From Thalassolituus maritimus (GTDB lineage: Bacteria > Pseudomonadota > Gammaproteobacteria > Pseudomonadales > Oceanobacteraceae), in NCBI RefSeq assembly GCF_040372045.1, contig NZ_BAABWH010000005.1: 32,000 bases of DNA. One strand, given 5' to 3'. Shown in pieces: positions 2,172 through 29,939 of this stretch. The translations under genes were made by a program, and so were the position numbers. Positions within the stretch are counted from its first letter, which is position 1. Each line of letters starts with the position of its first letter. The notes below the pieces were generated by a model. That model had not been told where the DNA came from. It searched no databases and saw only the letters and a program-made list of their open reading frames with translations.

Positions 2172-2203
2172 ATTCGGAACCTCTGTGTAACTTGTTCAAC
2201 TGC

Positions 2204-4096: not shown

Positions 4097-4115
4097 GATT
4101 TTTATTCTCCGCAAC

Positions 4116-6968
4116 TTAATTACTTTCTAGAACAGTGGTGTTAGTGACGGAATAACTGCCCAGAATCAGACTGACGGATTGACCCAACATTTCCAGGAAA
4201 ACCGCACTGTCATCTGAATTCGCAAAGGTGCTGTGCGTTCCTGATGCAAATCGTACTTCTGCACGCAGAGGCGAAGACAGATCACCTACAGTCGTTGCAC
4301 TCGTTACAGGCTCAGTACCAAGAACTGTCGTCAGGCCTTGCGTACCAGCGAGAGGCGCGTAGGCAGTGTCGATACCTGTTGGCAAGCCCAACGCAGACGC
4401 GAAAGCGGCATATGGGTTGGTACCCGCATCAGCAAAGTAGTCGAAGTTTGGAACCGTTGGATCGGGCAGATATACACCAGCCGCTTTGAATCCATCCGGA
4501 TAAGAAACACCCGAGGCATCTGATGGCAGTGCATTACCACCTACCATATTAAATGCCACAACAGGTGTGTCCGTGGCTGCAAGCATCGCCCCTGCATTCG
4601 CAGGATCTGCTACATCTACAGCAGACTGGAAGACGTACATGAATTTCTCAAAATTCTCTGTACCCTGAGCCACACCTGAAGCAGCCAGACCACCCACAAC
4701 AACCGGACCAAAAGATGCAGAGTTTTCCAGCAGTTTGGTCAGGTTTGCACCGCCATTTGCCAGAATCACACCCTGAACCTCATTCAGGTTGTCATTCGCA
4801 GCAAGAACCGCTGGAGAGTTGTTCACCGCTGCATAGGTTGTCGCCACAATGGCACCCAGTGAATGACCAGCAACGAATACTTTAGTCTCATCGAGTTCGA
4901 GTGCCGCCCCTGCGGCAACGACAGCGTCGCTGACTGCTTCGATACTGGCGTTCAGGTTAAGCAAGTCGACAACTGCCTGACGTACGTTGTCACGAGTTCG
5001 GGTGAAATTCGACAGGTTAATAAAGGCGCTGCCAGACGTACCTGCATCAGTTTCGCCGAAGTCCATCGCCACACGGGCATTCAAGCTATTCTGATATACG
5101 TTGCCATGGCGTTCTTTAATGCTGGCAAAAGTGGTGTCTCCACCGCCAACCTGAGCGGCAATAACACCTGCCCATGGTGACGAGGTATCTGCACCCAGAG
5201 CGACTTCCATGTTGAATGGAAGCAATGCATTAGCTACCGGCTGACCGTTATTATCGCTACCAATCGGAGCAATACCGTGCAGAGGCAAATCGATCGCTAC
5301 CGTTGCAATGCAGTTAGCTGCCAGACCTGCCGAATAAGGTAGAGCGTTGCCTCGGCTGCCAGTGATACCGTGGACGTACATCACGACCGGCACAGAAGAT
5401 AAACCTGAACAATCCTGTCCGCCTGCTGCACTATAATCAGCTTGAGCAGGCATGGTGATCAACAATGGAGCGACATTGCTGCTTTCCAACGGCTGTGGGA
5501 AAGGATAACGGTAAGTCACGTTCGTCGTGTCGTCGTCGTCTTTGGGTGGAGTAGTACCCGCTTCATTTCCAAGAGCTCCATCCAATACAGCACCCACACT
5601 GGTATTCGCAGACCAGTCTGGGTCCGCAGCCATTGCTGCGCCAATACCTTCAGCAGACAATTCTGTCGTAAGAGTAACGCCGCCCAGGAAGTCCGGAAGT
5701 TCGATCTGACCCTGATAGTAGCGAGTCAACGTATCTGCCGTACCCAGGAATGTCGCAGGTGACGCGCCATTACCACCAATAACACCGTCTACAGTTGCTC
5801 CATCAACAACAGCAACCGTCCGTTCAGAAGGACGATCAACCAGATCGTTGATGCTCACAGCTGCTTCTGCGCCAATCAAGCTGCTGATATCGGCTGAGGC
5901 AATTGACCCGTAAACCTGTCCCGGATAGATGTCCAAAGCCTTCACTCCGGCTACCTGTTCATCCGTCACTGCAGCGAGCTGCGCGGGATCATTTGGGTTG
6001 CCCATGGCACTGGCAACAGCTATCGAACGCGCAACGATATCTTCTAACTGCCCGCCAGCGAACTCGTCAGTCAGATCTTCGGCAGCTTCCAAAGTAAGAT
6101 TTGCCGCAATGAACTGCGCTGGATTAGCGTAGGAGGTCAAAACGTCCAGAGAGCCATCTGTTGTGAACGCGTAGCTCAAAACAATGTTGTCTTGCGACAG
6201 AGACCCGCCACTCGCTGCAGCCAGGAACTGTGCAGAGAGCGCCTCCCAACCCTGTACAGCATCACGCACAGGCTGCAATGCATTTGACGCCAGCTCGAGG
6301 TTACTGCTGACTAACTCATACTCGGCGGATGTTGCAACTGACTCGCCTGCGGCGGACTGAATGCCATCAGTGAGTACCACAAGATACTTAGTCTGCTTGT
6401 CCAGTGGTTTCAGAGGGGTTATCGCCACAGATGGCGTTGCACCGTCGTCTAGCTCGACATAACGCGCAGTGTAGTCAGTGCCAGCTACAGGCTGATCAGC
6501 AGAGAACGGTGACGACGCTTCTTCTGCATACACGCTGTTCGCCAGAATCGTGTTGATATCCAACGCATCAATATTCGCGTTGTCATCACTGCTCTTCAGC
6601 TCGATCAGAAAGACCGACTGGCCGGCAACCACGGAGTCGGCGTTCAGAATACCGTTGAACGGAACATAAAAAGTCGCAGTCGTAGAGAACCCTGGCAGAT
6701 CATTAATAGCTGTTGTAACGGGTGGTGTCGTGTCTGCCGTTGCTGCTGTGCCGTCTGTCGCCGCCGCAGTGGCAAAGACCAGATCGGTATTCAAGGGAAC
6801 CTGAGAAGTCGCAGGGGAGAATATAGGTGTGATTCGGGACGGAGTCGCTCCATCAGAACCAGAGGTTACTGCGGTTGTGTCTACTTTGAAATCGCTACCC
6901 GTATTACAGCCCGCAAGGCCTGCGGCTGTGGCTGCGATGGCCAGACTGAGTAAAGTCTTCTTCACCAT
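4116..6968 (-). CDS. Large lipoprotein lipase / alpha-beta hydrolase (bacterial virulence-factor-lipase N-terminal type, VolA-like)
   Basis: About 950 aa. Lipoprotein signal MVKKTLLSLAIAATAAGLAGC|NTG. The N-terminal ITPIFSPATSQVPLNTDLVF resembles the Lipase_bact_N motif. The serine-hydrolase nucleophile elbow is VFVAGHSLGAIV. An alternative start lies at 6983. The stop is only 19 nt from my preferred start of the DUF1302 gene (4096). Confidence 0.8.
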   Translation of the reverse strand: MVKKTLLSLAIAATAAGLAGCNTGSDFKVDTTAVTSGSDGATPSRITPIFSPATSQVPLNTDLVFATAAATDGTAATADTTPPVTTAINDLPGFSTTATFYVPFNGILNADSVVAGQSVFLIELKSSDDNANIDALDINTILANSVYAEEASSPFSADQPVAGTDYTARYVELDDGATPSVAITPLKPLDKQTKYLVVLTDGIQSAAGESVATSAEYELVSSNLELASNALQPVRDAVQGWEALSAQFLAAASGGSLSQDNIVLSYAFTTDGSLDVLTSYANPAQFIAANLTLEAAEDLTDEFAGGQLEDIVARSIAVASAMGNPNDPAQLAAVTDEQVAGVKALDIYPGQVYGSIASADISSLIGAEAAVSINDLVDRPSERTVAVVDGATVDGVIGGNGASPATFLGTADTLTRYYQGQIELPDFLGGVTLTTELSAEGIGAAMAADPDWSANTSVGAVLDGALGNEAGTTPPKDDDDTTNVTYRYPFPQPLESSNVAPLLITMPAQADYSAAGGQDCSGLSSVPVVMYVHGITGSRGNALPYSAGLAANCIATVAIDLPLHGIAPIGSDNNGQPVANALLPFNMEVALGADTSSPWAGVIAAQVGGGDTTFASIKERHGNVYQNSLNARVAMDFGETDAGTSGSAFINLSNFTRTRDNVRQAVVDLLNLNASIEAVSDAVVAAGAALELDETKVFVAGHSLGAIVATTYAAVNNSPAVLAANDNLNEVQGVILANGGANLTKLLENSASFGPVVVGGLAASGVAQGTENFEKFMYVFQSAVDVADPANAGAMLAATDTPVVAFNMVGGNALPSDASGVSYPDGFKAAGVYLPDPTVPNFDYFADAGTNPYAAFASALGLPTGIDTAYAPLAGTQGLTTVLGTEPVTSATTVGDLSSPLRAEVRFASGTHSTFANSDDSAVFLEMLGQSVSLILGSYSVTNTTVLESN

Positions 6969-7189
6969 ACATATACCTGTCATGTGTTGTTATGGTTATC
7001 AGATGCGTTGGTACACGCATCCCTTGCGTATATCAGCAATCACCTGACTATAATCCCGTGGCGTCACACCCTCATCGCCCGAAAGTATGATTCGCCTCCT
7101 TAAACCGGGGCATTTTGTATCTGATCGTAATCAAACATAGTTCAAATCCGCCAACCTACCAAACCGAGGGATAGGATTTATACGAGCCT

Positions 7190-11181: not shown

Positions 11182-12546
11182 TTGGCTAAACAATACGAAT
11201 TGATCCATCCGAAAACCCATCTTCGTGTGTTGTCACAGCATGAAATACAACAACTCAAAGACGTAGGAAGTGGCGCGCATGAGATGCTACGACGCTGTTC
11301 CTTTGCTGTTTTATCTGCCGGTAGCATGGAAGACGATTACACCCGCCTGGAAGAAAGCTATCGCGATTTCAGTATCAGCGTAGAACAGGAAGAGCGTGGC
11401 ATTGTTCTGCAACTCAGTGGTGCTCCCTCTGGCGCGTTTGTCGACGACGAAATTATCCGCGGCGTCAGGGAGCAGCTTTTCTCGGTACTGAGAGACATCC
11501 TCTACGCCGAAGAAAATATTCTTAAAGCCCATCGTTTTGACCTTAGCAAAAGTGAAGACATTACCAATGCCGTCTTTCACATTCTACGCAATGCTAACCT
11601 CCTGCAACCCGACGTCGAACCCAAACTCGTCGTATGCTGGGGAGGACATTCGATTCCACCCAATGAATACCAATACACCAAAGAAGTCGGCTACGAACTA
11701 GGCCTACGCGGTCTCGATATCGGTACCGGGTGTGGACCGGGGGCAATGAAGGGACCAATGAAAGGTGCCACCATCGGACATGCCAAACAGCACATCCGAA
11801 ACGGTCGCTATATCGGCATTACCGAGCCGGGCATTATTGCCGCAGAATCTCCCAACCCGATCGTAAATGAACTGGTTATTCTGCCAGATATAGAAAAGCG
11901 CCTTGAAGCATTCGTACGCATGGCACACGGCATTATTATTTTCCCGGGTGGCCCGGGTACAGCGGAAGAAATTCTCTACATACTTGGTGTGCTTTCACAC
12001 CCAGCCAATAAAGTTATTCCTTATCCATTAGTGATTACAGGACCAGAAGAAACCCGTGATTACCTGATGGACATTGATCGTTTTATTGGCGATACACTCG
12101 GGAAAGAAGCGCAGTCGCGCTACGAACTGATCATTAATGATCCTGTGACCGTCGCCCGTAGAATGAAAGCAGGCATGGAATCTGTACGCCAGTATCGTCG
12201 CGATAATAACGATGCCTACTTCTATAACTGGACATTGAAAATCGACCCTGATTTTCAGGCACCGTTCGAACCTACCCACGAGAATATGAAAACGTTACGA
12301 CTGAACCGCGATGCGCCTTTTCATGAATTAGCTGCAGACCTGAGGCGTGCGTTTTCTGGGATTGTAGCGGGTAACGTTAAGGCTGATGGCGTCGAGTTGG
12401 TACGTAAACATGGTCCTTACGAGATCCATGGTGACGCCGACATCCTTGATGGCATGGACCGATTACTGCGAGCGATGGTTGCCCATGGTCGAATGAAGAT
12501 CAGCGGTAACTACGAACCTTGCTACCGCATCGTAAAAAACGAGTGA
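11182..12546 (+). CDS. ppnN: Pyrimidine/purine nucleotide 5'-monophosphate nucleosidase (LOG-family, YgdH/PpnN)
   Basis: 454 aa, collinear with my recollection of E. coli PpnN. Shared segments include VVCWGGHSI..NEY.Y...VGYELGLRGL.I.TGCGPGAMKGPMKGA, TEPGIIAAE.PNP.VNEL.I.PDIEKRLEAFVR.AHGIIIFPGG.GTAEE and LAADLRRAFSGIVAGNVK. The track start is a TTG. Confidence 0.9.
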   Translation: MAKQYELIHPKTHLRVLSQHEIQQLKDVGSGAHEMLRRCSFAVLSAGSMEDDYTRLEESYRDFSISVEQEERGIVLQLSGAPSGAFVDDEIIRGVREQLFSVLRDILYAEENILKAHRFDLSKSEDITNAVFHILRNANLLQPDVEPKLVVCWGGHSIPPNEYQYTKEVGYELGLRGLDIGTGCGPGAMKGPMKGATIGHAKQHIRNGRYIGITEPGIIAAESPNPIVNELVILPDIEKRLEAFVRMAHGIIIFPGGPGTAEEILYILGVLSHPANKVIPYPLVITGPEETRDYLMDIDRFIGDTLGKEAQSRYELIINDPVTVARRMKAGMESVRQYRRDNNDAYFYNWTLKIDPDFQAPFEPTHENMKTLRLNRDAPFHELAADLRRAFSGIVAGNVKADGVELVRKHGPYEIHGDADILDGMDRLLRAMVAHGRMKISGNYEPCYRIVKNE

Positions 12547-12574
12547 TTTGCTTCACGTGGATCAGCACCCCGCA

Positions 12575-14209
12575 TTAATGCGAGGTTTCCTGAGTAGCGT
12601 GCAACTGAATGCGTTCGGTTGCACGCTGCGATAGGCCCGCGGCATGGTTCATAACGTGAAAAATGACGTTCTGCTCGTTCACACCTGAAATCAACGGCGC
12701 ACCGGGTCCTCGGGCATAAATAGCAACATCCTCGCCGCCATGTGTTTCTGCAGTAAGTGGAACCAGCGCTTCCTGGTGATAGCCGACCGACTGAGTGTCT
12801 ATATCGGTAATGTCCTGACGACCAAAGGTCACTGGTTCTTCATAGACTACCTCAGGGTCTGTCTGAACGCCCAGTGCATAGTGGCCTCGACCGTTCATAT
12901 ACCCCAGAGTCGTATAGGGTTTACCGTCTTCCGCGAGCGTCGGTTCACTTTGCCCAACACCAACGACTTTTCCGAGAATGGGATTGCCGCGCTTGGGGTA
13001 GCCTGCCATTGTAAAAACATGGCTATGATCTGCAGTAACGATAATCAAAGTGTCGTCTTCTGAAGTCATATTTAATGCCATACTGATCGCATTCGAAAAC
13101 TCCCGGGTTTCATGCAGAGCATTAAACGCACTACCGGCGTGGTGCGCGTGATCAATGCGACCCGACTCGACCATAAGAAAGAAGCCTTCCTCGTCCGCGT
13201 CGGCCTGCAACAACTCCAGCGCTTTTTGAGTCATCTCACTCAATGACGGTTCGCCTGCTTTATCATTCTGACGATCGATTTCGAAGCGCATGTGAGTTTC
13301 TTCGAATAAGCCCAGCACAGGCAAAGTCGACAAGGACGCGAAGGTCTCAGAATCAAATGCGAACTGACCAACCGGATTCAGCTTCTGCCACTCAGAAATA
13401 AGATGGCGACCATCTGTGCGGTCACCCTCAGTCTCACTGCGCGCATCTGCGGTATTCGAGGCAGCATCCGCCGGCAGAAAATGTCGACGACCTCCGCCAA
13501 ATGCCACCTCAATACCGTCGACAGCAACTCCATAAGTCGAAGCTGTACGTGTTTTAAAATCAACAAACTGAGACGCAATGTCCACGCAGCCAGCGGCAAC
13601 GGCGTCTTCCGTCATATCGGAAATATCTTCCCAGTTGCGTTCGGCAGAATACGCGTATGTCGCCGCGGGTGTTGCGTGAGTCAGTCGCGCGGTGGTCACA
13701 ATACCGGTTCTCATACCGGCAAGCTCAGCCATTACCAGAGCGGAGGGCATTTGTAACTCTGCCTGATGGCAGGCACCCCGTTGTGCCTCTTCACTCAGGC
13801 CTATCACCCCTGCATCCGTCTTTACGCCTGTCACCATCGCGGTCATAGTGCCAGCCGAATCCGGGGTTTGCGCATCCACGTTGTAGGTTTTACTGAGCCC
13901 AGTAAAGGGTAACGTCTCAAAACTAAGCTGATACTCTTCACCACTCAGCCCCAGTAATTGCCCTGCGTAAATACGCGAAGCCGTCACGGTTGATATTCCC
14001 ATACCGTCGCCTACAAACAGAATGACATTCTTAGCTTGAGTGTTGTCTTTAAGATAGCTGGCTCGCTCCTCGACGGCTTTTTTCCCTGCGATATACCAAG
14101 GGTTAGTCGAATCAAAGAGGTCAATAGAACCAGAAGAGCTACGATCGATATCGGAGCAGCCCGACAGCAGAAATACAGAGGTAAACAGCAAAAGGTGGGA
14201 ATATTTCAT
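12575..14209 (-). CDS. Alkaline phosphatase (PhoA/PF00245 family), lipoprotein
   Basis: Lipobox FLLSGC|SD. Metal-site and nucleophile motifs LFVGDGMG and TPDSAGTMTAMVTG (Asp-Ser-Ala), plus DHSH and ETHGGEDV. I prefer the ATG at 14209 over the TTG at 14218. Confidence 0.9.
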   Translation of the reverse strand: MKYSHLLLFTSVFLLSGCSDIDRSSSGSIDLFDSTNPWYIAGKKAVEERASYLKDNTQAKNVILFVGDGMGISTVTASRIYAGQLLGLSGEEYQLSFETLPFTGLSKTYNVDAQTPDSAGTMTAMVTGVKTDAGVIGLSEEAQRGACHQAELQMPSALVMAELAGMRTGIVTTARLTHATPAATYAYSAERNWEDISDMTEDAVAAGCVDIASQFVDFKTRTASTYGVAVDGIEVAFGGGRRHFLPADAASNTADARSETEGDRTDGRHLISEWQKLNPVGQFAFDSETFASLSTLPVLGLFEETHMRFEIDRQNDKAGEPSLSEMTQKALELLQADADEEGFFLMVESGRIDHAHHAGSAFNALHETREFSNAISMALNMTSEDDTLIIVTADHSHVFTMAGYPKRGNPILGKVVGVGQSEPTLAEDGKPYTTLGYMNGRGHYALGVQTDPEVVYEEPVTFGRQDITDIDTQSVGYHQEALVPLTAETHGGEDVAIYARGPGAPLISGVNEQNVIFHVMNHAAGLSQRATERIQLHATQETSH

Positions 14210-14221
14210 GGTCGTCAACGC

Positions 14222-14239
14222 CAGTCATGCGAATGACTG
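14222..14239. promoter_or_regulatory. 18-bp palindrome in the motB-like / alkaline phosphatase gap
   Basis: cagtcat (14222-14228) gcga atgactg (14233-14239): perfect 7-bp arms with a 4-nt spacer. It occupies half of the 37-bp intergenic gap. No U-tract follows on either strand. Confidence 0.3.
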
Positions 14240-14246
14240 CATGGTA

Positions 14247-14921
14247 TCAGTAACGTCTTACAGTGACGACAACCCGACGATCAGCTTCACGTTGATCTTG
14301 AGTGGTAATGTCCCCTTCCAGAACCTTCGGACGACTATCCGCGTAACCCGATGCTTTAAGACGTTCTTTCGCAATTCCAGTTTGCAGTAAATACTTCACG
14401 ACACCGGTCGCGCGGGCCGCAGACAACTCCCAGTTTGAAGGGAATTCATCTGTCGCAATGGGTAAATCGTCGGTGTGCCCTTCCACTTCAATCATATGAG
14501 AGCCATGACTGACGTCTTTGATCACCCTTCCAAGCTCCTGCAACATAGGCTGCGCATCGGGCTTTAGCTGCGCCGACCCTGAATCGTACAGCGCCACATT
14601 TGCAAATTCGACCTGTATACCGCGCGGATCAAGCGTGACCGTTACCTGATCCGCCAACCCATTCTTTTCAACGTACTCGTCGAGCCCCTGCTTAATTTCC
14701 GTAAAAGGCGTCGCATTATTTTCAGATGAAATCACCTCTGCGAGGCCTTCTTTCAAGGACTCGATTTTTCCCTGATTTAAATCCGATACCGCGAGTATCA
14801 TCACGAAAAATGCCAACAGCAACGTAATAGCGTCAGAATACGTCACTAACCAAGAGCTGGAAGAATCATCAAAATTGGGACGACGTCGTCGCAATCCACG
14901 CTGACGAGATGCATGGCTCAT
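14247..14921 (-). CDS. MotB/OmpA-family stator protein (peptidoglycan-anchored proton-channel subunit)
   Basis: 224 aa. Single TM segment with the conserved channel Asp (SWLVTYSDAITLLLAFFVMI). C-terminal OmpA-like peptidoglycan-binding domain (VEGHTDDLP...SNWELSAARATGVVKYL...GYADSRP). Its start overlaps the stop of the MotA-like gene (TGATG). Confidence 0.85.
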   Translation of the reverse strand: MSHASRQRGLRRRRPNFDDSSSSWLVTYSDAITLLLAFFVMILAVSDLNQGKIESLKEGLAEVISSENNATPFTEIKQGLDEYVEKNGLADQVTVTLDPRGIQVEFANVALYDSGSAQLKPDAQPMLQELGRVIKDVSHGSHMIEVEGHTDDLPIATDEFPSNWELSAARATGVVKYLLQTGIAKERLKASGYADSRPKVLEGDITTQDQREADRRVVVTVRRY

Positions 14922-15724
14922 CAGAGTTCACCCGATAACACGGGGGTTCGTACAGACGGCTTAAGAAATGCGCTCAGCCTGTCCTGCATATACAGTGCCG
15001 TGCGCTTCTCACTCAACAGGACAAACCCCTCAGACACCAGCTGATGGCGGAAATACATGGTTTCCTGTTTTTCTGTAACCTGATTTGCAGCTGGCTTAAA
15101 AAATAAGTTCGACAGTAAAACACCATACAGCGTCGTGATTAATGCCAAGGCTAGGCCTTTACCCAAACCCGCCATATCCCCATTCAGATTATCCAACATG
15201 ATAATCAACCCGACTATGGTACCCACCATCCCAAAGCCGGGTGAGTACACAGCCATGGTATTCAATACCTTGCCTTCCAACGTGTGGCGCTGCCAGGTTG
15301 CATCCATCTGATCGGTCAACATAGTGCGGATATCATGATTGCTGTAGCCAGCTCCCATGAGATCCAGACCGGCGCGCATAAATTCATCGTTCTGCTCTTG
15401 CTTCGTCAAAGATTGCTCAAGCGCCACAATGCCACCTTGACGATAAATCGTACTCCACTCAACGAAGCGATCCGTCACCTGCTTGAGGTGTTTCTGTGAT
15501 GTTGGCGGGTGAAAGAAGGTGTACAGCATGCTGCGTAAGGCACGAATCACATCCATGGTGGAGTAACTGATTAAGGCTGCCGCCAAGGTACTACCAAACA
15601 CCAGCCCGAAACTGGAAACACTGATAAATATGACATGGTTATCAGTGGCGCTGGCCACTGCGAACACAAGGAGACCAATGCCTGCACAAAAACCAATTAG
15701 CGTACTGAATGAAAAACGGAACAC
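14921..15724 (-). CDS. MotA/PomA-family stator protein (MotA/TolQ/ExbB proton-channel family)
   Basis: 267 aa with a four-TM layout. Cytoplasmic loop has YRQGGIVALEQ (compare the RxxGxLALE region of MotA/PomA). TM3 is SPGFGMVGTIVGLI and TM4 is ALITTLYGVLLSNLFFKPAAN, each with the conserved Pro. GTG start with an AAGGAG Shine-Dalgarno 10 nt upstream. Confidence 0.85.
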   Translation of the reverse strand: MFRFSFSTLIGFCAGIGLLVFAVASATDNHVIFISVSSFGLVFGSTLAAALISYSTMDVIRALRSMLYTFFHPPTSQKHLKQVTDRFVEWSTIYRQGGIVALEQSLTKQEQNDEFMRAGLDLMGAGYSNHDIRTMLTDQMDATWQRHTLEGKVLNTMAVYSPGFGMVGTIVGLIIMLDNLNGDMAGLGKGLALALITTLYGVLLSNLFFKPAANQVTEKQETMYFRHQLVSEGFVLLSEKRTALYMQDRLSAFLKPSVRTPVLSGEL

Positions 15725-15766: not shown

Positions 15767-17701
15767 CTAGCTCTGCTTCACTTCAGCCAGCTCATCCATA
15801 GAGAAGCGACCTTCACGAATAACATCACGCATTTTTTGCACAACCTGACGACGGGCCGATTCAACCTGATCCTGTGCGGTCGCCGCTTCTGATACTTTCA
15901 GTTCATTAATAATCCCCGCGCGCAACTTGGCGGGCAACGCAGCCAGTACGTAACGTTTAAACTCAATAGACGTATTGCACAGCGACGCAGTTAAAATCGC
16001 GGTATCCAAGGTGCGTAACTCATTAGAAATAATGCGATCTGGTGTCCTGCTCAAATCAGCAAATGTGAAGTACACCTGACGTAAGCGATAGTAGGTTTCC
16101 GGCTTCTCAGACTTGAGTGTTTTAAGCATCCGGGTTTCTTCACTGGTGGTCATCTTATCCAGCATGCCGATTAATACCGACAAACCATCCGCCGTAATAT
16201 TCTCAAACGAAGGGACCGTCAATGACGCTTTGGCCAGGCGATCTGCAACATCTTTAAAAGCCGAGACGGGGAGACTCTCAAATTGTCCCAACTCGAATGC
16301 GATATCCGCCAACTCACGCGAGTCCAGTCGCAGAATAATATCCGCCGACCGCTGGGCCGGTAGCTGCGACATGACTAACGCCTTGATGCGTATATCCTCA
16401 TCCTTAATCAGGAACAGCACCTGGGAGTCGTTCAGTTTATTCAGAAAGGCAAAAGGCTGAGTATTTGAGGCGTCGTCCTGCTGGCGCTCAAGACGTTGAG
16501 AAAACTGCTCCATGCCTTCCGATAACTGCTCTTCATTCCAATCGCCTTCTTGTAGTAAGTCGTCGATCTGTTTCCAGTCTGCTGGCGTGAGATGCGGCGC
16601 CAGACTGGCAAATAAGCTCTTACCCATCGTTGCAGATAACGAAGCAACCTCAAATGCCTGCGCGCTGCCCAAGGCCTGTGACACCGCCTGCTGAAAGCGA
16701 TGTGGCTGCGACAGTCCCTGGCTCACCAGTCGTTGGCGGGATTCATTGATTCGATAACGGAGTGCTGCCGTATCGCCCTCCGACTGGCGGGCAATGCCAG
16801 TTCCCTTAGCCGTGTCAACGGGAGTATCAAGCCCGGGATGAGCTGTGGCCATTGAAGTAATTGGCTGATTGAGACGACGCCACAGTGCAAGGAACGCCAG
16901 CACGAGAAGCAACCCGACAACCAACAGGCTGGCTAACCAAATCCAAGGGGTGTATGCCTCCCAGAAAGAGAGGGGCGTTTCCTCTTTTTTCAGGTGACTA
17001 AAACCTGTTTTGACAATATTTAATGTATCTCCACGGAGTTCATTAATTTGTGCTTTGCGCGTCACCAGGTTTTTCAAAAACTCGATCTGTTCGTCTTCTA
17101 AGCCATTATCGACGACTAATGTAATCTCGAGTTTTTTAATGATATTGCGATAGCCTATGGTTTTCTCCGAGGGCTGACCGGCTTGCGCCTGTTGTTTTTG
17201 CTGTGCCACGTCTTTGAGCTGATCCGCGTAGGAGATAATCTCCTGACGCTCTTTCTCAAGCTGCTGCAGCTGAGAATGCAGCGCACGTAATTTCTCGTTA
17301 TTTTCCTTCAAGAGCGGCATTTCGCTGACAGGCAGACCAGGTAATTCTTCGAGGTCATCCAAATTATTGGATTCAATATCAGGCAGCGAAATACTGCCAC
17401 TGACTCGCGGTTTAGCCGGAAGTTGTGGAGGCTGCTGAGCTGGTGCTGGCTGACCCGATTCACGTACGACGGTGCGTGCGCGTTCAATGACTGCATCAAC
17501 CTGAATAATAAAGCGGTTATTACCGAGATAGGACTCAATATCCTGACGTAAGCGCGCCTCAAGGTCACTGCGAAAACGCGCCTCTTCTACCTCATCTTTT
17601 TTTACCGGCACCTCAAATGTGTCTTGAGAGTGTGCCATGAAGGGTAACATCAGAAGAGAGCAAACAAGCACCCAAAGATAACGACGTATTGAATTCATCA
17701 T
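15767..17701 (-). CDS. Bitopic inner-membrane protein with cytoplasmic FliG-like (middle + C-terminal) domains and a periplasmic coiled-coil / ring-building-motif-like region
   Basis: The layout runs from N to C in five parts:
- N-terminal signal/TM segment: YLWVLVCSLLMLPFMAHS.
- Periplasmic region of about 220 aa, containing a Gln-rich coiled coil.
- Second TM segment: WIWLASLLVVGLLLVLAFLALW.
- Cytoplasmic FliG_M-like stretch: VLFLIKDEDIRIKALVMSQLPAQRSADIILRLDSRELADIAFEL.
- Cytoplasmic FliG_C-like stretch: QVYFTFADL...LRTLDTAILTASLCNTSIEFKRYVLAALPAKLRAGIINELK...VESARRQVVQKMRDVIREGRF.
I prefer the ATG at 17701 or 17698, downstream of a GAGGGAGGG Shine-Dalgarno; the track start at 17716 is a TTG. 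Confidence 0.75.
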   Translation of the reverse strand: MMNSIRRYLWVLVCSLLMLPFMAHSQDTFEVPVKKDEVEEARFRSDLEARLRQDIESYLGNNRFIIQVDAVIERARTVVRESGQPAPAQQPPQLPAKPRVSGSISLPDIESNNLDDLEELPGLPVSEMPLLKENNEKLRALHSQLQQLEKERQEIISYADQLKDVAQQKQQAQAGQPSEKTIGYRNIIKKLEITLVVDNGLEDEQIEFLKNLVTRKAQINELRGDTLNIVKTGFSHLKKEETPLSFWEAYTPWIWLASLLVVGLLLVLAFLALWRRLNQPITSMATAHPGLDTPVDTAKGTGIARQSEGDTAALRYRINESRQRLVSQGLSQPHRFQQAVSQALGSAQAFEVASLSATMGKSLFASLAPHLTPADWKQIDDLLQEGDWNEEQLSEGMEQFSQRLERQQDDASNTQPFAFLNKLNDSQVLFLIKDEDIRIKALVMSQLPAQRSADIILRLDSRELADIAFELGQFESLPVSAFKDVADRLAKASLTVPSFENITADGLSVLIGMLDKMTTSEETRMLKTLKSEKPETYYRLRQVYFTFADLSRTPDRIISNELRTLDTAILTASLCNTSIEFKRYVLAALPAKLRAGIINELKVSEAATAQDQVESARRQVVQKMRDVIREGRFSMDELAEVKQS

Positions 17702-17712
17702 ATTGCCCTCCC

Positions 17713-18390
17713 TCAACGCAGGCGTGCCAGACTGGCACGTACCTGATCAAGCTCAGGATCGAGTTCGAGCGCCTGTTCCCAGCTTGCCCGCGCCTCTGGA
17801 AGCAAACCCATCTTGTAATAGATACTTCCCTTGAGGGCATGCGCTTGTGCTGAATCCGGAATCAACTCGAGTGCATCATTGGTCTGATCAAGCGCGTCCC
17901 AGTATTCCTTTTTATAAAACAGGCTTTGGGCCGAAAGGATGTGTTTCGTCATCGTTTCGCTACGACTGAGTTTTTCCTTCTGCTGCTCGCTGATTTTTCC
18001 CTCTGCATCAGCGTGATTTTCAGCCGCGATATCACTAGCAGTGCCTTCCATCAGTCCGTCGCTCTGATCTTCCACTTCAGCATGACTCTGCGGCAAATCC
18101 ATAACGAACTTCACATCAGAATCACCCGCATCAATGGTCATCAGAATGTCATACCCTTCACCGTAGCGATGGATGTGCATCAAGCCATGTTGCTTTTTGG
18201 CTTTCTCGACCACCTTCTCCAGTTGAGAGATTTCTTCAACCTCGGCCTCTTCTTCCGGTTCGACAGGCTTCCCCGGATCGACCCATGGGCTTGGGTTAAA
18301 CCCTTTTACCATCTTGTTGGTACGTTCGTGCGAGCAACCCTGAATTCCCAGAGAGACAAGGAGCACGGCAACTATCATTCCTGCTTTCAT
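17713..18390 (-). CDS. TPR-repeat lipoprotein with acidic linker
   Basis: Lipobox VSLGIQGC|SH. A highly acidic middle region follows. The C-terminus carries TPR-like helices (YWDALDQTNDALELIPDSAQAHALKGSIYYKMGLLPEARASWEQALELDPE). Its stop overlaps the downstream gene's Shine-Dalgarno/start region. Confidence 0.75.
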   Translation of the reverse strand: MKAGMIVAVLLVSLGIQGCSHERTNKMVKGFNPSPWVDPGKPVEPEEEAEVEEISQLEKVVEKAKKQHGLMHIHRYGEGYDILMTIDAGDSDVKFVMDLPQSHAEVEDQSDGLMEGTASDIAAENHADAEGKISEQQKEKLSRSETMTKHILSAQSLFYKKEYWDALDQTNDALELIPDSAQAHALKGSIYYKMGLLPEARASWEQALELDPELDQVRASLARLR

Positions 18391-18398
18391 ACTATCTC

Positions 18399-19454
18399 CT
18401 AGAATCTCAGACCAAGTGACAAGTCATAGCTCGCACCACCAAGCTTCCCTGTGTCTTCCAGACCAGAAACACTCGTCCATTTCGCTGTGCTTTCCGGCAA
18501 GTACGTCACGCCATAATCAATGAAGCCGTCTTTGAAAAAGGGGAATTCAAAACCAAAACGGAAGACCAGTGCGTTGGTGTCGTTAAAGAACGCCTGCCCC
18601 ATACCCAGATAAACTTTCGTATCGATAAGATCATCCATGCTGGGAATATCAGCGATGATCCTCCCTTCCAGATTTATGCCTGAGATATCGAAGTTTTCGC
18701 GATTAGAGAAATTGCGGAAATACTCGAACGCCAGGGTGTATTGCAACTGATCGTCGAGGCTCGTCGTTTCGCGGCGTCGGATGCCAAATACGGTGACGCC
18801 TTTTACCTCTTCACTGTCTGTACTGGACAGGTGGGCCCGCTCTGCAGAAATTCCCCATGCGCCGACAAGGAATTCATAATTTACGCTGTCAAAGCCCTCT
18901 ACTTCCTGTTCCAGAGTCGTTTTCTTCGAATATTCTTTCAGCCACAGTAATTTGTTGTCGCGGGCATCGACCATACGCAAGTTAATGGTGAATTTGTTCT
19001 GCTCGACTGACGCGTTCCAGAACAAAAAAGCATCCGCTCGCACATGCTGCCCTAGCTTCCGTAACGCCTGATTATCAACAGCGACATGGCTGACCTCGAG
19101 CCGGTCTTCTCGCATTGCTACCTGCGTAGTTCTGCATTCAAGACATTGAATGACTTCAAAACGACCGCTATCCAGCATGCGCTTCATTAGCTTGTTCTCG
19201 ATCATCAAATGAACTTGCTTAGGAATCTTACGGTGCATCCGATCCCCGTTGTGATATAGCGCTACCCGCTTCACGGACTCGGGAAGGTCAATTAACTCTT
19301 CCTTTACCAGCGTTTTGTCGTCATCCAGCAGCTGAGTAAAACCCGTGTACAAAGATGAGCGCATTTCGGGTGGCTCAAGACCGGGAAGAGGTGTCTCTGC
19401 AAGACTGCTGAGCGGTAATAATATTACGGAGAGTAACAGTAACCGTCGGAACAT
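18399..19454 (-). CDS. Outer-membrane protein: periplasmic LpoB/CsgG/FlgO-like N-domain plus a small C-terminal beta-barrel
   Basis: Signal peptide MFRRLLLLSVILLPLSSLA|ETP. The N-domain pattern is VALYHNG...IENKLMKRMLDSGRFEVI...ADAFLFWNASVEQNKFTINLRMVDARDNKLLW. The C-terminal ~160 aa contain about 8 amphipathic beta-strand segments (YEFLVGAWGI, LQYTLAFEYF, KVYLGMGQAFF, ALVFRFGFEF, ASYDLSLGLRF) and end in Phe. An 8-nt gap separates it from the TPR gene. Confidence 0.65.
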   Translation of the reverse strand: MFRRLLLLSVILLPLSSLAETPLPGLEPPEMRSSLYTGFTQLLDDDKTLVKEELIDLPESVKRVALYHNGDRMHRKIPKQVHLMIENKLMKRMLDSGRFEVIQCLECRTTQVAMREDRLEVSHVAVDNQALRKLGQHVRADAFLFWNASVEQNKFTINLRMVDARDNKLLWLKEYSKKTTLEQEVEGFDSVNYEFLVGAWGISAERAHLSSTDSEEVKGVTVFGIRRRETTSLDDQLQYTLAFEYFRNFSNRENFDISGINLEGRIIADIPSMDDLIDTKVYLGMGQAFFNDTNALVFRFGFEFPFFKDGFIDYGVTYLPESTAKWTSVSGLEDTGKLGGASYDLSLGLRF

Positions 19455-19768: not shown

Positions 19769-20065
19769 TCAGTTCGACAGGTGATCACACAAGGCTGCCA
19801 TATCAACATCGCGCTGAGTCACACCGCCGGCATCATGGCTCCACCAGATAACCGTCAATAAGCCCCACGCCACGTTGATTTGAGGGTGATGATCATAATT
19901 CTCGGCGAGTTCAGCTATCTTGCCTGCCAAAGCAAAGGCATCGGCAAAATTAGCAAAGGTCCAGGTTCGACAGAGGCAGGGGATGTCCTCCATTGTACCA
20001 ATGTGCCACTCAGGACGACTCAAGAGCTGAGATGTGAGTTCTTCGTGTGTCAGTACATCAGACAT
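19769..20065 (-). CDS. phhB: 4a-hydroxytetrahydrobiopterin (pterin-4-alpha-carbinolamine) dehydratase
   Basis: 98 aa. FANFADAFALAGKIAELAENYDHHPQINVAWGLLTVIWWSHDAGGVTQRDVDMAA matches the PCD signature (HHP...W..V.V.W.TH...G....D). Confidence 0.9.
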   Translation of the reverse strand: MSDVLTHEELTSQLLSRPEWHIGTMEDIPCLCRTWTFANFADAFALAGKIAELAENYDHHPQINVAWGLLTVIWWSHDAGGVTQRDVDMAALCDHLSN

Positions 20066-20105
20066 ACAACCTCCGGGAAAGAAGTGAATGAGTCCTTACT
20101 CTGAC

Positions 20106-20135
20106 AAAAAAGGAGAGCAATTGCTCTCCTTTTTT
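20106..20135 (-). terminator. Symmetric rho-independent terminator after the fumarase gene
   Basis: aaaaaa-ggagagc-aatt-gctctcc-tttttt: perfect 7-bp stem (20112-20118 / 20123-20129) flanked by A6 and T6. It starts 40 nt downstream of the fumarase stop. Confidence 0.85.
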
Positions 20136-20174
20136 CGTATCAGGACAGGTCAAAGAATCCTTAGGAGGAAATCC

Positions 20175-21683
20175 TCAGACCTCGGTCGCGTTGATTCGCG
20201 CGAACCACTCCTGAGGGCCCGTCTGGTGAACGGACTCGCCTTTGCTGTCTACCGCTACGGTAACTGGCATATCTTCGACTTCAAACTCGTAGATAGCTTC
20301 CATGCCCAAGTCGTCAAAGCCGACAACCTTAGCGCCTTTAATCGCTTGAGATACCAGGTACGCAGCACCACCAACAGCCATCAGATAAACAGCTTCGTTG
20401 TCACGAATCGCATCAATAGCAATCGGACCACGTTCTGCTTTACCGATCATCCCCAGCAGACCGGTCTCCTCGAGCACAGTACGGGTGAATTTATCCATAC
20501 GCGTCGCGGTTGTCGGGCCCGCAGGACCTACGACTTCTTCGCGCACCGGATCAACCGGACCGACGTAGTAAATAAAACGACCTTTCAGATCAACTGGAAG
20601 CTCTTCGCCTTTCGAAATCATGTCGACCATACGCTTGTGCGCCGCATCACGGCCAGTCAGCATCTTACCGGACAACAAAACTGTCTCACCCGGCTGCCAG
20701 TCTTTCACATCTTCTGGAGTCACAGTGTCGAGGTTTACACGGCGAACGCTGTCACCGACTTCCCAGCTGATTTCTGGCCAGTCTTCAAGCTTAGGCGCTT
20801 TCAGAGAAGCAGGGCCGGAACCGTCCAACTCGAAATGCGTGTGACGGGTTGCAGCACAGTTCGGGATAATCGCAACAGGCTTATTCGCTGCATGCGTTGG
20901 GTAATCGGCGACTTTGATGTCGAGAACCGTGGTCAAACCACCCAGTCCCTGAGCACCAATACCCAGCTTGTTTACTTTCTCGTAGAGTTCGAGACGCAGT
21001 TCTTCCGCACGGTTTTCTGCACCGCGAGCCTGAAGTTCCTGAATATTAACCGGCTCAAGCAGCGCTTCTTTGGCAATCTGCATCGCTTTCTCAGCCGTAC
21101 CGCCAATACCAATGCCCAGCATACCCGGTGGACACCAGCCTGCACCCATCTTCGGCACCTGCTCAAGTACCCAATCAACAATCGAGTCTGATGGATTCAG
21201 CATCGCGAACTTTGATTTCGCCTCTGAACCACCGCCTTTCGCTGCAACATGAACATCAACCGTGCTGCCCGGTACTAATTTCATGTGAATGATGGCTGGC
21301 GTATTGTCTTTGGTGTTTGCACGCTTGCCATCCGGATCAGCGAGTACGGACGCACGGAGTACATTGTCAGGATGCGTATAAGCACGGCGAACGCCTTCGT
21401 TGCACATGTCTTCGACGCTCATATCACCCTCGAACTTCACATCCATACCGATGTTGAGGAAGACCGTTACGATACCCGTGTCCTGACAAATTGGACGTTT
21501 CCCCATCGCACACATACGTGAATTGATCAGAATCTGAGCCATGGCGTCTTTCGCTGCCTTGGATTCCTCACGCTCATAGGCCTGGTGTACGGCATCAATG
21601 AAGTCTTTCGGGTGGTAGTAGGAAATGTATTGCAAAGCGTCAGCAACGCTCTGAATCAGATCCTCTTGCTTTATCACGGTCAT
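20175..21683 (-). CDS. Class I (Fe-S dependent) fumarate hydratase, single-polypeptide type
   Basis: 502 aa. The N-terminus MTVIKQEDLIQSVADALQYISYYHPKDFI...RPICQDTGIVTVF and the C-terminal beta-domain (GRFIYYVGPVDP...GPTTATRMD...AVGGAAYL) are typical of class I fumarases. Confidence 0.93.
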   Translation of the reverse strand: MTVIKQEDLIQSVADALQYISYYHPKDFIDAVHQAYEREESKAAKDAMAQILINSRMCAMGKRPICQDTGIVTVFLNIGMDVKFEGDMSVEDMCNEGVRRAYTHPDNVLRASVLADPDGKRANTKDNTPAIIHMKLVPGSTVDVHVAAKGGGSEAKSKFAMLNPSDSIVDWVLEQVPKMGAGWCPPGMLGIGIGGTAEKAMQIAKEALLEPVNIQELQARGAENRAEELRLELYEKVNKLGIGAQGLGGLTTVLDIKVADYPTHAANKPVAIIPNCAATRHTHFELDGSGPASLKAPKLEDWPEISWEVGDSVRRVNLDTVTPEDVKDWQPGETVLLSGKMLTGRDAAHKRMVDMISKGEELPVDLKGRFIYYVGPVDPVREEVVGPAGPTTATRMDKFTRTVLEETGLLGMIGKAERGPIAIDAIRDNEAVYLMAVGGAAYLVSQAIKGAKVVGFDDLGMEAIYEFEVEDMPVTVAVDSKGESVHQTGPQEWFARINATEV

Positions 21684-27127: not shown

Positions 27128-29026
27128 TTATTTCTGAACAGGCAGTCCCTGGAACAGGCGTTCAAGCTGCATATCAGCTTCATCAACACCCAACTCTTCC
27201 GACACTGTAAACTCCCAGATGCCGTTGAATTTATCACGGGTCAGCGTCTTGGCTTTACCACCGTCATCGACAATGGTCGGGCGCAAGAACACCATCAGAT
27301 TACTCTTCACCTGATTAACGCTCTTAGAGCGGAACAACCAACCCAGTAATGGAATATCACCCAACAGAGGTACCTTGCTCACCACTTCACGAACGTCGTC
27401 ACGGATCAGACCACCCAACACGATCGTCTCACCGTCCTCAGACAGAATCATGGTTTTAATAGAGCGCTTGTTGGTAATCAGGTCAGCACTGCCAGCAACG
27501 GTAGTATTGGATACAGATTCCGCTGTCGCTTCCACTTCCAGTCGGATCGCCTCACCGTCGTGAATGTGAGGAATCACTTTCAACGTAACACCCACGTCCT
27601 GTCGATCAATTGTGGTGAATGGGTTTGTGTTGGTACTGGATGCTGTTTGCCCGGTCACGAAGGGAACATTCTGACCCACAACAATCTCAGCTTCCTGGTT
27701 GTCCAGCGTCATGATGCTCGGAGTCGACAACAGGTTGGTCGACGAATTACTTTTCAGAGCCTGAATAATGACACCGAAATCGATATCGCCACCAGACTCT
27801 TTAAACCCACCAATGGTCAGACCCGAGCCTACCGCGTTGGCGTAAGTTGATGGCCCGCCCGCCACTGCACCGGCAATGGTCGCAAGGTCTGGTCCGGCAT
27901 TGTTAAAGCTGGTTCCGGCAACAGGGGAGTCCAGATCACCACGAACCCACTGCACACCCAGTGCATCGCTGGTGTCGCCTGTCACTTCGATAATTGCCGA
28001 TTCAATCAGTACTTGCGCGCGACGTACATCGAGTGAATTAACCAGTTCCTGTACTTCTTTAAGGATAGAAGGCTCAGCACGCACAACGAGCGCATTCAGC
28101 TCTTCATCCGCGTGAATACCAACCTCGCCTTTCACCTTGGCTTCTTCGCCCGAACCCGTGCTGCTACCCATCAGGTTCTTCAACATCTCAGCCAGCTTGG
28201 TGGCATCGGCGTATTGCAGACGAATAACCTGAGCACTGCCGCTGAAATATGAAGGCTGGTCGAGCTGTTCGATCAGACCGCGGATACGCTCACGCGCCGT
28301 TTTCTCACCCTTGATGATAAGACGATTGCTACGCTCGTCTGCCACAACACGGATACTGCCAGCGGTGTTGTTATTGTCCGTATTTCCCTGAGAGACCTTC
28401 GATGGATCGAGGCTCTGCAACATGGTCACAACGTTGCCCACCCAGGCTTCTTTAAGCTGAATAACTTCAAGCTCTTCAGATCCTGAACGGTCAAGGCGGT
28501 CTATGATTTCCTCGATACGATTAATATTGATCGCGTGATCAGAAATAATCAGCGCGTTGGCCGATTTCACACCGGCCAGATGACCGTATTTCGCCACCAG
28601 AGGGCGAAGGATCGGCACCAGATCCAGCGCAGGCGTGTTCTTGATCATAATGACCTTAGTCAGCAACTCCTGACTGTCGACACCCGCTCGCTCTTCAAGG
28701 CTACGACCCGCTTGCTTCACATCGTTCTGCTGGATAATCAGCGTCACATCACCGGCGGGAACCGCCGCAAGACCATGAATCTGCAATACCGACAGGAAAA
28801 GTTCATAGACACCTTCCTGATTCATCGGCTCACTGGAGAGCACGCTGACCTTGCCTTTCACACGCGGATCAAGGACAAAACTTTTCCCTGTAATATCGGC
28901 AACCTGACTGATAAACGCTTCTATGTCCGCGTCCTTCAGATTGATCTGCCAGCTTTCATTCGCTTGCAGTGGCATCGCCATGCTTGCCATCAATAACATG
29001 GCCATCAGCCAACGTCTGAGCAACAT
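27128..29026 (-). CDS. gspD: Type II secretion system secretin
   Basis: 632 aa with a signal peptide. N0 domain INLKDADIEAFISQVADITGKSFVLDPRVKGKVSV. C-terminal secretin core is VPLLGDIPLLGWLFRS....NLMVFLRPTIV. Its start overlaps the gspC stop (TGATG). Confidence 0.92.
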   Translation of the reverse strand: MLLRRWLMAMLLMASMAMPLQANESWQINLKDADIEAFISQVADITGKSFVLDPRVKGKVSVLSSEPMNQEGVYELFLSVLQIHGLAAVPAGDVTLIIQQNDVKQAGRSLEERAGVDSQELLTKVIMIKNTPALDLVPILRPLVAKYGHLAGVKSANALIISDHAININRIEEIIDRLDRSGSEELEVIQLKEAWVGNVVTMLQSLDPSKVSQGNTDNNNTAGSIRVVADERSNRLIIKGEKTARERIRGLIEQLDQPSYFSGSAQVIRLQYADATKLAEMLKNLMGSSTGSGEEAKVKGEVGIHADEELNALVVRAEPSILKEVQELVNSLDVRRAQVLIESAIIEVTGDTSDALGVQWVRGDLDSPVAGTSFNNAGPDLATIAGAVAGGPSTYANAVGSGLTIGGFKESGGDIDFGVIIQALKSNSSTNLLSTPSIMTLDNQEAEIVVGQNVPFVTGQTASSTNTNPFTTIDRQDVGVTLKVIPHIHDGEAIRLEVEATAESVSNTTVAGSADLITNKRSIKTMILSEDGETIVLGGLIRDDVREVVSKVPLLGDIPLLGWLFRSKSVNQVKSNLMVFLRPTIVDDGGKAKTLTRDKFNGIWEFTVSEELGVDEADMQLERLFQGLPVQK

Positions 29027-29919: not shown

Positions 29920-29939
29920 TATTAATCAAAGCGCTCAGG

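Follow-up and report, generated by a model that had tools for sequence, protein, structure and literature searches.

The FliG–MotAB rotor–stator pair is generally regarded as specific to the flagellum. A survey published in 2025 names three innovations of the 'FIT' class of stators as flagellum-specific, namely the plug, the torque-generating interface and the OmpA-like domain (PMC12505986), while rotor proteins found without a filament have been taken to hint at alternative functions, their role being left open (PMC12199754). Single chains that join FliF to FliG are on record as engineered constructs, those of Salmonella forming rings and supporting motility and those of Vibrio forming rings (PMC10941966; PMC11481574). 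Here we describe a natural protein of this kind, encoded at 15767..17701 on the minus strand of a 32,000-nucleotide stretch of the Thalassolituus maritimus contig NZ_BAABWH010000005.1 (the window). The gene is the third of a five-gene operon and encodes a protein of 644 residues, in which a FliF-type domain resembling ring-building motif 3 (RBM3) and a transmembrane (TM) helix are fused to the middle and C-terminal domains of FliG. With a MotA/MotB-type stator of its own and its distance from flagellar genes, it resembles a hitherto undescribed, pared-down machine of rotor and stator.

A close comparison is with the engineered fusions, namely the Salmonella deletion-fusions and the FliFG protein of Vibrio alginolyticus (PDB 8z4d/8z4g), in which one chain combines MS-ring and FliG functions, as would be the case here. 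Those are, however, laboratory constructs of full-length FliF and FliG (about 945 residues) belonging to a complete flagellum, whereas the present protein is natural, 644 residues long and a member of a widespread family found outside flagellar loci. That the engineered fusions work indicates that covalent replacement of the joint between the two proteins is feasible. Neither NCBIfam (June 2026) nor Pfam holds a model for the family, and its members carry the database names 'FliG C-terminal domain-containing protein', 'flagellar motor switch protein FliG' or 'hypothetical'. A search of the full-text literature, with most subscription journals outside its coverage, returned only the engineered FliF–FliG fusions and no description of a natural family.

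Architecture of the fusion protein

The open reading frame (ORF) at the locus runs from 15767 to 17716 on the minus strand, which also carries all the other features of the operon described below. The likely start of the fusion is the ATG at 17701, which is preceded by a ribosome-binding site (GAGGGAGGG), the stop of the upstream tetratricopeptide repeat (TPR) gene lying 11 nt before it. From this start the protein is laid out as a signal-peptide-like segment, about 224 periplasmic residues, one TM helix and 367 cytoplasmic residues. The initial annotation of this DNA had proposed a FliF/FliG chimera in one polypeptide beside a MotA homologue, and this proposal is upheld by sequence, by profile and by predicted fold, the matches to both FliF and FliG being far beyond chance. 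Its topology agrees largely with the one predicted here, in the sizes of the periplasmic part (about 224 residues), the TM helix (residues 251–277) and the cytoplasmic part (367 residues), but the N-terminal segment needs to be reinterpreted. Residues 1–25 (17627..17701), read from the sequence, consist of an RR pair, a hydrophobic core and a potential cleavage site between AHS and QD, and the hydrophobic segment, with its AxS/AxA-type site, has an equivalent with the form of a Sec signal peptide in every orthologue of the family alignment. A cleaved signal peptide is the likelier reading of this segment, ahead of a TM1 helix.

An AlphaFold2 (AF2) model was built with 49 homologues as input and reached a mean predicted local distance difference test score (pLDDT) of 77.8. 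In the periplasmic part it places a strand at residues 28–33, a helix at 37–59, a long strand at 64–81, a disordered stretch at 82–127, a helix of 45 residues at 128–172, a second long strand at 178–197, a helix at 203–217 and a strand at 226–231, ahead of the TM helix at 251–277. The possibility that the periplasmic region is a bare coiled coil, which had been raised at the outset, is thus not borne out, the predicted order being α-β-insert-β-α-β. Two short periplasmic segments had also been likened to ring-building motifs of the YscJ/FliF type. Both are indeed FliF-type, but they are not two modules; they are the halves of a single αββαβ RBM3 domain, split between β1 and β2.

The first half (residues 28–81, 17459..17620) is seen in the AF2 model and aligned with FliF 234–273, and it is here that the profile match to FliF 235–534 begins. 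The second half (residues 178–231, 17009..17170) was aligned with FliF 359–445, and its strand at 226–231 holds the sequence RGDTLNIV. The TM helix (16871..16951), aligned with FliF 455–482, is the equivalent of FliF TM2 and is followed by RR on the cytoplasmic side. In a single-sequence search against solved structures, EQIEFLKNLVTRKAQINELRGDTLNIV together with the TM helix (residues 204–280) aligned with Salmonella FliF 407–482, comprising helix α2, the strand and the second TM helix, and the RGDTLNIV strand of the fusion paired with FliF's own RGDTLNVV. The segment FRSDLEARLRQDIESYLGNNRFIIQVDAVIE (residues 40–75) aligned with Salmonella FliF 234–273, where RBM3 has its first helix and strand, and this match is not significant when taken alone (score −0.0). 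A profile of 13 family sequences matched FliF (6scn) with E=1.1e-9 across FliF 235–534, and a profile of the N-terminal 325 residues alone matched FliF with 9.1e-7. Foldseek searches with the fusion model returned, among others, the FliF RBM3/collar structures 7bk0, 6sd1, 8zdt and 8z4g at E values of 5e-4 to 5e-3. In Pfam, YscJ_FliF_C (PF08345) was sub-threshold on residues 166–234 of the fusion and is recorded for many orthologues; it was matched by 16 of the 68 family members scanned, with a best E of 7e-8.

The fusion and FliF therefore have the same topology, with a periplasmic domain, a TM helix and a cytoplasmic tail, and the same αββαβ fold in which an insertion parts β1 from β2, with an RGDTLN[IV]V strand before TM2. 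They differ at the N-terminus, where the fusion has what looks like a cleavable signal peptide, and in the number of ring-building domains. YscJ_FliF (PF01514), the Pfam model of RBM1/RBM2, had no match in the fusion, and as the mature periplasmic part opens at once with the RBM3 helix, it contains neither RBM1 nor RBM2. In FliF the export gate is housed by these two, and a protein lacking them offers no seat for it. The two proteins differ again at the position of the β-collar, the element that stabilises the S-ring of FliF. In its place, the fusion has an insert (residues 82–177, 17171..17458) made up of a Pro-rich disordered stretch, an LPGLP motif and the 45-residue helix, although the long flanking strands of 18–20 residues in the model may represent a retained stub of the collar. 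LPGLP (residues 120–124, nt 17330–17344) is near-invariant and lies in the disordered part of the insert; together with RGD and PFxFL it is conserved in at least 90% of 131 family representatives from several phyla. It may serve as a docking peptide, one candidate partner being the TPR lipoprotein encoded upstream.

In the cytoplasmic half, the FliG middle domain (residues 426–495, 16217..16426) was detected by Pfam FliG_M (PF14841) with 44.0 bits against a cutoff of 25 (E 2.7e-11), and the FliG C-terminal domain (residues 528–634, 15800..16120) by FliG_C (PF01706) with 55.3 bits against a cutoff of 23.3 (E 9.2e-15). FliG_M was present in all 68 members of the broad family scanned with Pfam. 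When the family profile was compared with the PDB, it matched Aquifex FliG (3hjl) at 2.3e-20 and Thermotoga FliG-MC at 3.9e-19; a further match was 8z4d, the FliF–FliG construct of Vibrio, which was hit in both its FliF and its FliG parts. Foldseek with the fusion model ranked full-length FliG first (3hjl at 2.5e-10, 8umx_B at 4e-10), and the C-domain superposed on 1qc7 and on the MotAB-bound FliG-C 8ucs_H with a root mean square deviation of 1.7–2.1 Å.

The landmarks of FliG that had been pointed out in this region were each recovered by alignment. The hinge, YFTF in place of MFxF (residues 544–547), aligns with MFTF of FliG, and the candidate torque helix LPAKLRAGIINELK (residues 589–604, nt 15890–15937) aligns with that of FliG. 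The EHPQ motif is degenerate, as had been suggested, with NEHPQ of Aquifex pairing with DEDIR of the fusion; the family consensus is E-[DE]-x-R, and in a 49-sequence family alignment E435 and R438 are the only invariant residues at the former EHPQ site. The torque helix follows the consensus P-x-K592-L-[RK]-A-x-x-x-x-[ED]600-L-K602; among the 37 orthologues, K592 is kept in 36 and E/D600 in 35. Mapped through the Aquifex alignment and given in E. coli numbering, we take K592 to be the equivalent of FliG R281 and E/D600 that of D289.

Immediately ahead of the FliG middle domain, the AF2 model shows a cytoplasmic domain of six helices (residues 307–410, 16472..16783; pLDDT 84–89), family-specific in sequence and situated at the position of FliF-C/FliG-N. 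The initial annotation had found no FliG N-terminal domain, and the sequence methods agree with it: FliG_N (PF14842) and FliF_C gave no match when a profile of residues 296–418 was run against the PDB and Pfam or when 18 members were scanned with Pfam, and hhalign of residues 296–418 to canonical FliG gave a probability of 0.15%. FliG_N matches reported by Pfam in 53 of 68 distant relatives were rejected as evidence, since their coordinates overlap the M domain and they are cross-matches. The position is not empty, however, as the six-helix domain fills it, and the Foldseek alignments to full-length FliG span 320/321 residues, which amounts to collinear coverage of the FliG N-domain position. 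It is plausible from the model that residues 307–410 form a diverged FliG-N-like or FliF-C/FliG-N-like domain. A separate FliG-binding C-terminal peptide of the FliF type was not detectable in the fusion.

The fusion thus has in common with FliG the M and C domains, an MFxF-type hinge and a torque helix with equivalents of R281 and D289. In contrast to FliG, it is membrane-anchored, has lost EHPQ and three of the five classical charges, has an N-domain unrecognisable by sequence and has no FliM or FliN partner encoded nearby. On the NCBIfam FliG equivalog TIGR00207 it scored 62.1 bits against a cutoff of 226.7 (residues 410–631), and on PRK05686 30.1 against 550. With the TIGR00207 score so far under its cutoff, the fusion is a relative of FliG and not an orthologous FliG.

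The stator pair and the five-gene module

The adjacent MotA homologue named in the initial annotation is real. The gene at 14921..15724 encodes a MotA/PomA-type stator A subunit of 267 residues, with a match to Pfam MotA_ExbB (PF01618) at 1.5e-22 and best PDB matches to MotA (8ucs_C, 9e-32) and PomA (1.5e-27). The gene that follows it (14247..14921), the start of which overlaps the motA-like stop, encodes a MotB-type stator B subunit of 224 residues with Pfam matches to MotB_plug (1.2e-13) and OmpA (6.8e-17); it has the TM Asp, in YSDAITLLL, the plug and the OmpA-like peptidoglycan-binding domain. In the MotA-like protein, R95 is found in 37 of 38 sequences and E/D103 in all 38, at positions that correspond to R90 and E98 in E. 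coli. The pair thus shares with the FIT stators MotAB, PomAB and MotPS a torque region with the R/E pair, the plug and the OmpA-like domain (PMC12505986), but differs from them in being tied to the fusion gene rather than to a flagellar locus and in falling below the NCBIfam cutoffs. All NCBIfam stator equivalogs (MotAB, PomAB, MotCD and MotPS) were below cutoff, with MotP at 166.6 against 394 and MotD at 175.9 against 283, and the MotS and MotB models likewise matched the MotB-like protein below cutoff. Motors of the MotAB family working with non-flagellar envelope partners, as would be the case here, are also known from Tol-Pal, ExbBD-TonB, GldLM/T9SS, AglRQS and ZorAB of Zorya, but none of these uses a FliG-like rotor or an RBM ring. 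Zorya and other defence systems were considered with PADLOC and rejected, as ZorA matched with E=0.0014 over 58 residues only, the ZorB matches reflect generic similarity to MotB, and ZorC, ZorD and ZorE were not found.

Co-variation of the charged residues of the torque helix with the MotA-like protein across orthologues had been named as a check, and a charge-compensating co-change was found between MotA-like residue 96 and fusion residue 598, amounting to about two independent events. Residue 96, which adjoins the R90 equivalent, is Asp where fusion residue 598 is Arg or Lys (16 of 17 loci) and Gln or Ser where it is Ile (19 of 20). Asp at MotA-like residue 104 goes with Arg at fusion residue 603, again in 16 of 17 loci, and a pairing of D with K as against Q with Q recurs between loci L037 and L036. 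Co-change of this kind is as expected from a direct electrostatic interface between the two proteins.

The operon is tightly packed on the minus strand, in the order barrel protein, TPR lipoprotein, fusion, motA-like and motB-like. Its first gene (18399..19454) encodes a secreted protein of 351 residues, with an N-terminal α/β domain resembling LpoB, TolB-N and PelC and a C-terminal eight-stranded outer-membrane β-barrel ending in LGLRF, the terminal RF being invariant. The AF2 model of this protein (pLDDT 74.7) shows the α/β domain followed by the barrel. In Foldseek, the barrel part matched NspA (3e-6) and also Ail, OmpX, OmpA-TM and OmpW, and the N-domain matched the C-domain of LpoB (3.5e-5) and also GNA1162, TolB and PelC; matches to LpoB and FlgO in Pfam were weak. 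All database copies are named 'hypothetical protein', one of them, from Thalassolituus maritimus, being 100% identical. An invariant C-x-E-C at residues 104–107 (in QCLECRTT) lies at the start of a loop (105–125) with a pLDDT below 50 in the AF2 model, and could be a disulfide or a metal site. The second gene (17713..18390) encodes a TPR lipoprotein of 225 residues, which reads as having a lipobox-like LGIQGC with Ser at +2; its C-terminal repeats were above the Pfam cutoff for TPR_1, TPR_11 and TPR_2, and its matches in NCBIfam were weak and of the PilW/Tgl/BatC type.

In Campylobacter, the TPR proteins PflA and PflB and the outer-membrane-associated FlgP rings scaffold the stators (PMC12222027). 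The module resembles PflA/PflB, FlgP/FlgQ and the FlgO/FlgP/FlgT proteins of Vibrio in likewise having a TPR protein and an outer-membrane-associated protein, both encoded together with its rotor and stator, and the periplasmic domain of its barrel protein is weakly FlgO/LpoB-like, below the level of a significant sequence relationship. The combination of an OmpX/NspA-like barrel with a LpoB-like domain, however, is not described for any of them. Consensus scans for σ70, σ28 and σ54 promoters upstream of the operon, in the window and in 34 loci, gave nothing usable, although this is a crude test.

A scan of one genome per species identified 37 loci, in Thalassolituus, Oceanobacter, Bacterioplanoides, Oleispira, Bermanella, Oceaniserpentilla, Saccharospirillaceae and two distant gammaproteobacterial metagenome-assembled genomes (28% identity). 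As far as its contig reaches, each locus has the module complete, none of the genes within it being frameshifted or lost (35–37 of 37 for each gene). The barrel gene is syntenic wherever the locus sequence reaches far enough upstream, and the TPR gene in 36 of 37 loci, the exception being a contig of 3.7 kb that begins only within the fusion gene. In both distant metagenome-assembled genomes the order is rearranged to motA-motB-barrel-TPR-fusion, and the retention of the module, also where it is rearranged, argues strongly for a joint function of the five genes. The fusion ORF is full-length in every contig that contains the whole gene, 2 of the 37 being cut off. Non-synonymous substitution in the fusion gene is low (dN 0.06–0.33), but dN/dS is not quantifiable because synonymous substitution (dS) is saturated.

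When 1.84 billion cluster representatives were searched exhaustively with a family profile, 162 proteins were returned at E≤1e-30, most of them of 560–720 residues and aligned from the second-half RBM3 strand to the C-terminus. The named relatives of the distant branch belong to Calditrichaeota and candidate division KSB1 or are labelled 'bacterium'. The module recurs around very distant representatives, at about 20–30% identity: TPR-fusion-motA-motB (L038), fusion-373aa-TPR-motA-motB (L040), 409aa-TPR-fusion-motA-motB (L041), 344aa-TPR-fusion-motA-motB (L042) and, in the Calditrichaeota genome GCA_008501765.1, fusion-382aa-TPR-motA-motB with a CsgG-family gene upstream (L043). Homology to the barrel protein was found for the neighbours of 344 and 373 residues (1e-97 and 1e-12), and the four TPR proteins tested beside distant members all matched the TPR profile, with E values of 1e-21 to 1e-31.

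Several neighbours of the distant members were also recorded. The CsgG-family gene of the Calditrichaeota locus, at 6249–7175, encodes a lipoprotein and lies just upstream of the module; LpoB, GNA1162 and PelC have folds related to CsgG, and the barrel protein of the window gave no CsgG match. In L038, genes for MoxR (AAA_3), DUF58, DUF4381 and VWA proteins (11496–14573) directly follow the motB-like gene in an operon of the Bat/MoxR type, and the faint NCBIfam match of the window's TPR lipoprotein is likewise BatC-type. The MoxR/VWA genes were dropped from the core module, as this adjacency was not seen in five other loci.

In the window itself no other flagellar genes were found, whether for the export apparatus, the rod, FliM or FliN, and the module is flanked by genes for fumarase, alkaline phosphatase, PpnN and type II secretion. 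In T. oleivorans, the flagellar and chemotaxis genes lie in one separate block, TOL_2479–2522, and the flagellum is polar (PMC6304351). The alkaline phosphatase gene (12575–14218, minus strand) begins 28 nt past the motB-like stop and may be co-transcribed with it here; PhoA was nonetheless rejected as a module member, being adjacent in the window and 2–4 kb away or absent in related genomes. Between the operon and the fumarase gene lies an ORF of about 98 codons (19770–20064, minus strand) that by eye resembles pterin-4a-carbinolamine dehydratase (HHPQINVAWG), and the fumarase gene is followed by a hairpin and a T-run (about 20105–20134). An ORF of 367 codons antisense to fumarase (20088–21191, plus strand) has no Pfam match and is almost certainly spurious. 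Further away on the minus strand are genes for DUF1329 (LolA-like) and DUF1302 proteins and a 955-residue protein with a bacterial lipase N-domain (810–6983), which are unrelated to the fusion, and the type II secretion genes gspN, gspC and gspD, the last encoding the secretin (27128–30719), which are unrelated to the module.

Possible modes of action

The reading that we favour, as probable though by no means secure, is that the fusion is a flagellum-derived, single-polypeptide subunit of a rotor ring driven by a dedicated stator. By analogy with FliF, the RBM3 domains would assemble many copies into a membrane ring, which would put a ring of FliG-C torque helices beneath the membrane, the covalent fusion replacing the FliF-C/FliG-N joint. 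MotA5B2-type units, which the MotB-like protein would tether to the peptidoglycan by its OmpA-like domain and whose power would come from ions flowing by way of the conserved Asp of that protein, would turn this ring through charge pairs between R95/E103 of the MotA-like protein and K592/E600 of the fusion, which we presume to be comparable to those between MotA R90/E98 and FliG D289/R281 in E. coli. The loss of EHPQ and the missing FliM and FliN suggest that there is no switch, and the lack of RBM1/RBM2 and of export-gate, rod and hook genes that an axial filament is not made. On the periplasmic and outer-membrane side, the TPR lipoprotein and the outer-membrane barrel/LpoB-like protein probably serve as a scaffold or partner of the motor, by analogy with PflA/PflB and FlgP, and the LPGLP and long-helix insert, taking the place of the β-collar, may reach toward them. 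Candidate outputs of rotation would be an outer-membrane or periplasmic task, or surface movement.

A wider reading has a substantial chance, though less than an even one, namely that the five genes form an autonomous, flagellum-independent rotary machine, in which a ring of single-chain RBM3/FliG subunits, turned by a flagellar-type stator of its own, is linked to the outer membrane by way of the TPR lipoprotein and the barrel/LpoB-like protein, with no type III export apparatus, rod, hook, filament or switch; it would cover at least the Gammaproteobacteria and the Calditrichota/KSB1-type bacteria. Several observations weigh against a rotor ring. Two of the five classical FliG charges are kept, the equivalents of K264, D288 and R297 being C575, N/A/S/E599 and a non-basic residue. 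The β-collar is not predicted, the AF2 model having disordered Pro-rich sequence and the 45-residue helix in the insert. The co-change between the MotA-like protein and the fusion rests on essentially two phylogenetic events. Three distant family members of 771, 712 and 777 residues (L039, 8001–11709; L044; L045) have no adjacent motAB, and their stators may be encoded elsewhere or they may be functional variants; a KAP-family NTPase gene follows one of these three and a Sel1/TPR protein gene another. Finally, no load, output or axial component was found among the module genes.

This last point, together with the only partial retention of the torque-helix charges, would also suit a docking platform that does not rotate. 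The FliG-like domains would then recruit and un-plug MotAB-type units, with the fusion forming a static ring or no ring at all, and the rotation of the 5:2 motor itself would be the working stroke, passed on to the TPR and outer-membrane barrel proteins in the manner of Tol-Pal or Ton. The partners, a barrel with a LpoB/TolB-N-like domain and a TPR lipoprotein, do recall Tol-Pal with its TPR protein YbgF (PMC12222027). We nevertheless consider such a platform unlikely, as the stator is of the flagellar type, with a plug, an OmpA-like anchor and a rotor-facing R/E pair, and not of the TolQR/ExbBD type, and as the MotB-like protein has no extension like that of TolA or TonB. RBM3 is, moreover, a ring-building module, and the conservation of the torque helix and its co-change with MotA fit force transfer at that site. 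The module could alternatively be an accessory of the polar flagellum, supplying under some conditions a second set of stators and an adaptor or outer rotor ring with a TPR/outer-membrane scaffold, after the models of PflA/PflB/FlgP in Campylobacter and MotX/MotY/FlgT/FlgO in Vibrio. The hosts are polarly flagellated (PMC6304351; for Bermanella, PMC6248924), TPR proteins and outer-membrane-associated rings scaffold extra stators in complex motors (PMC12222027), and the barrel protein has its weak FlgO/LpoB match. This role appears improbable, however, for a module that lies outside the flagellar locus, has no σ28- or σ54-type consensus upstream in 34 loci (by the same crude test) and recurs in all five parts in very distant phyla. 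The fusion also lacks the EHPQ needed for binding FliM, and with a ring-building domain and TM helix of its own it could not insert into an existing MS-ring.

There is very little, by comparison, to recommend the view that the gene is left over from a duplicated flagellar locus and decaying, or that its product is a helical-repeat protein of the MgtE-N type with only a superficial likeness to FliG. MgtE_N and FliG are homologous, and Pfam MgtE_N did match the fusion weakly (E=0.019; 15.9 bits against a cutoff of 25.9), while TIGR00207 reached only 62 bits against 226.7. FliG was nonetheless the better match in every search, with Pfam values of 9e-15 and 3e-11 against 0.019 and Foldseek values of 2.5e-10 against 1.7 for MgtE (2yvy), and the C-domain superposes on 1qc7 and 8ucs_H at about 2 Å. 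The MgtE-like identity, which the initial annotation had named as the alternative to be checked, was thus rejected. As to decay, the ORFs are full-length wherever the whole gene is on the contig, dN is low with saturated dS, and 162 deep-branching representatives are known; the conservation data effectively refute this explanation.

Significance of the family

The family is thus a concrete, widespread and strongly conserved candidate for a system that has rotor and membrane ring in one chain and a dedicated stator, with no export or axial parts. Should the module turn out to be an accessory of the flagellum, it would nonetheless represent a novel form of elaboration of the motor, found in oil-degrading marine bacteria. 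If the ring rotates, it would be the simplest known FliG/MotA motor and a new envelope-spanning energy transducer, and its homo-oligomeric rotor, free of the symmetry mismatch between MS-ring and C-ring, would make it attractive for structural and single-molecule work. It would also provide a data point on how the flagellar motor might work, or have arisen, independently of type III secretion. A flagellum-independent machine, if that reading is true, would be a new class of envelope machine, a living example of a working 'half motor', which would reflect a drastic reduction of the flagellum or else model a pre-flagellar stage of the rotor and stator.

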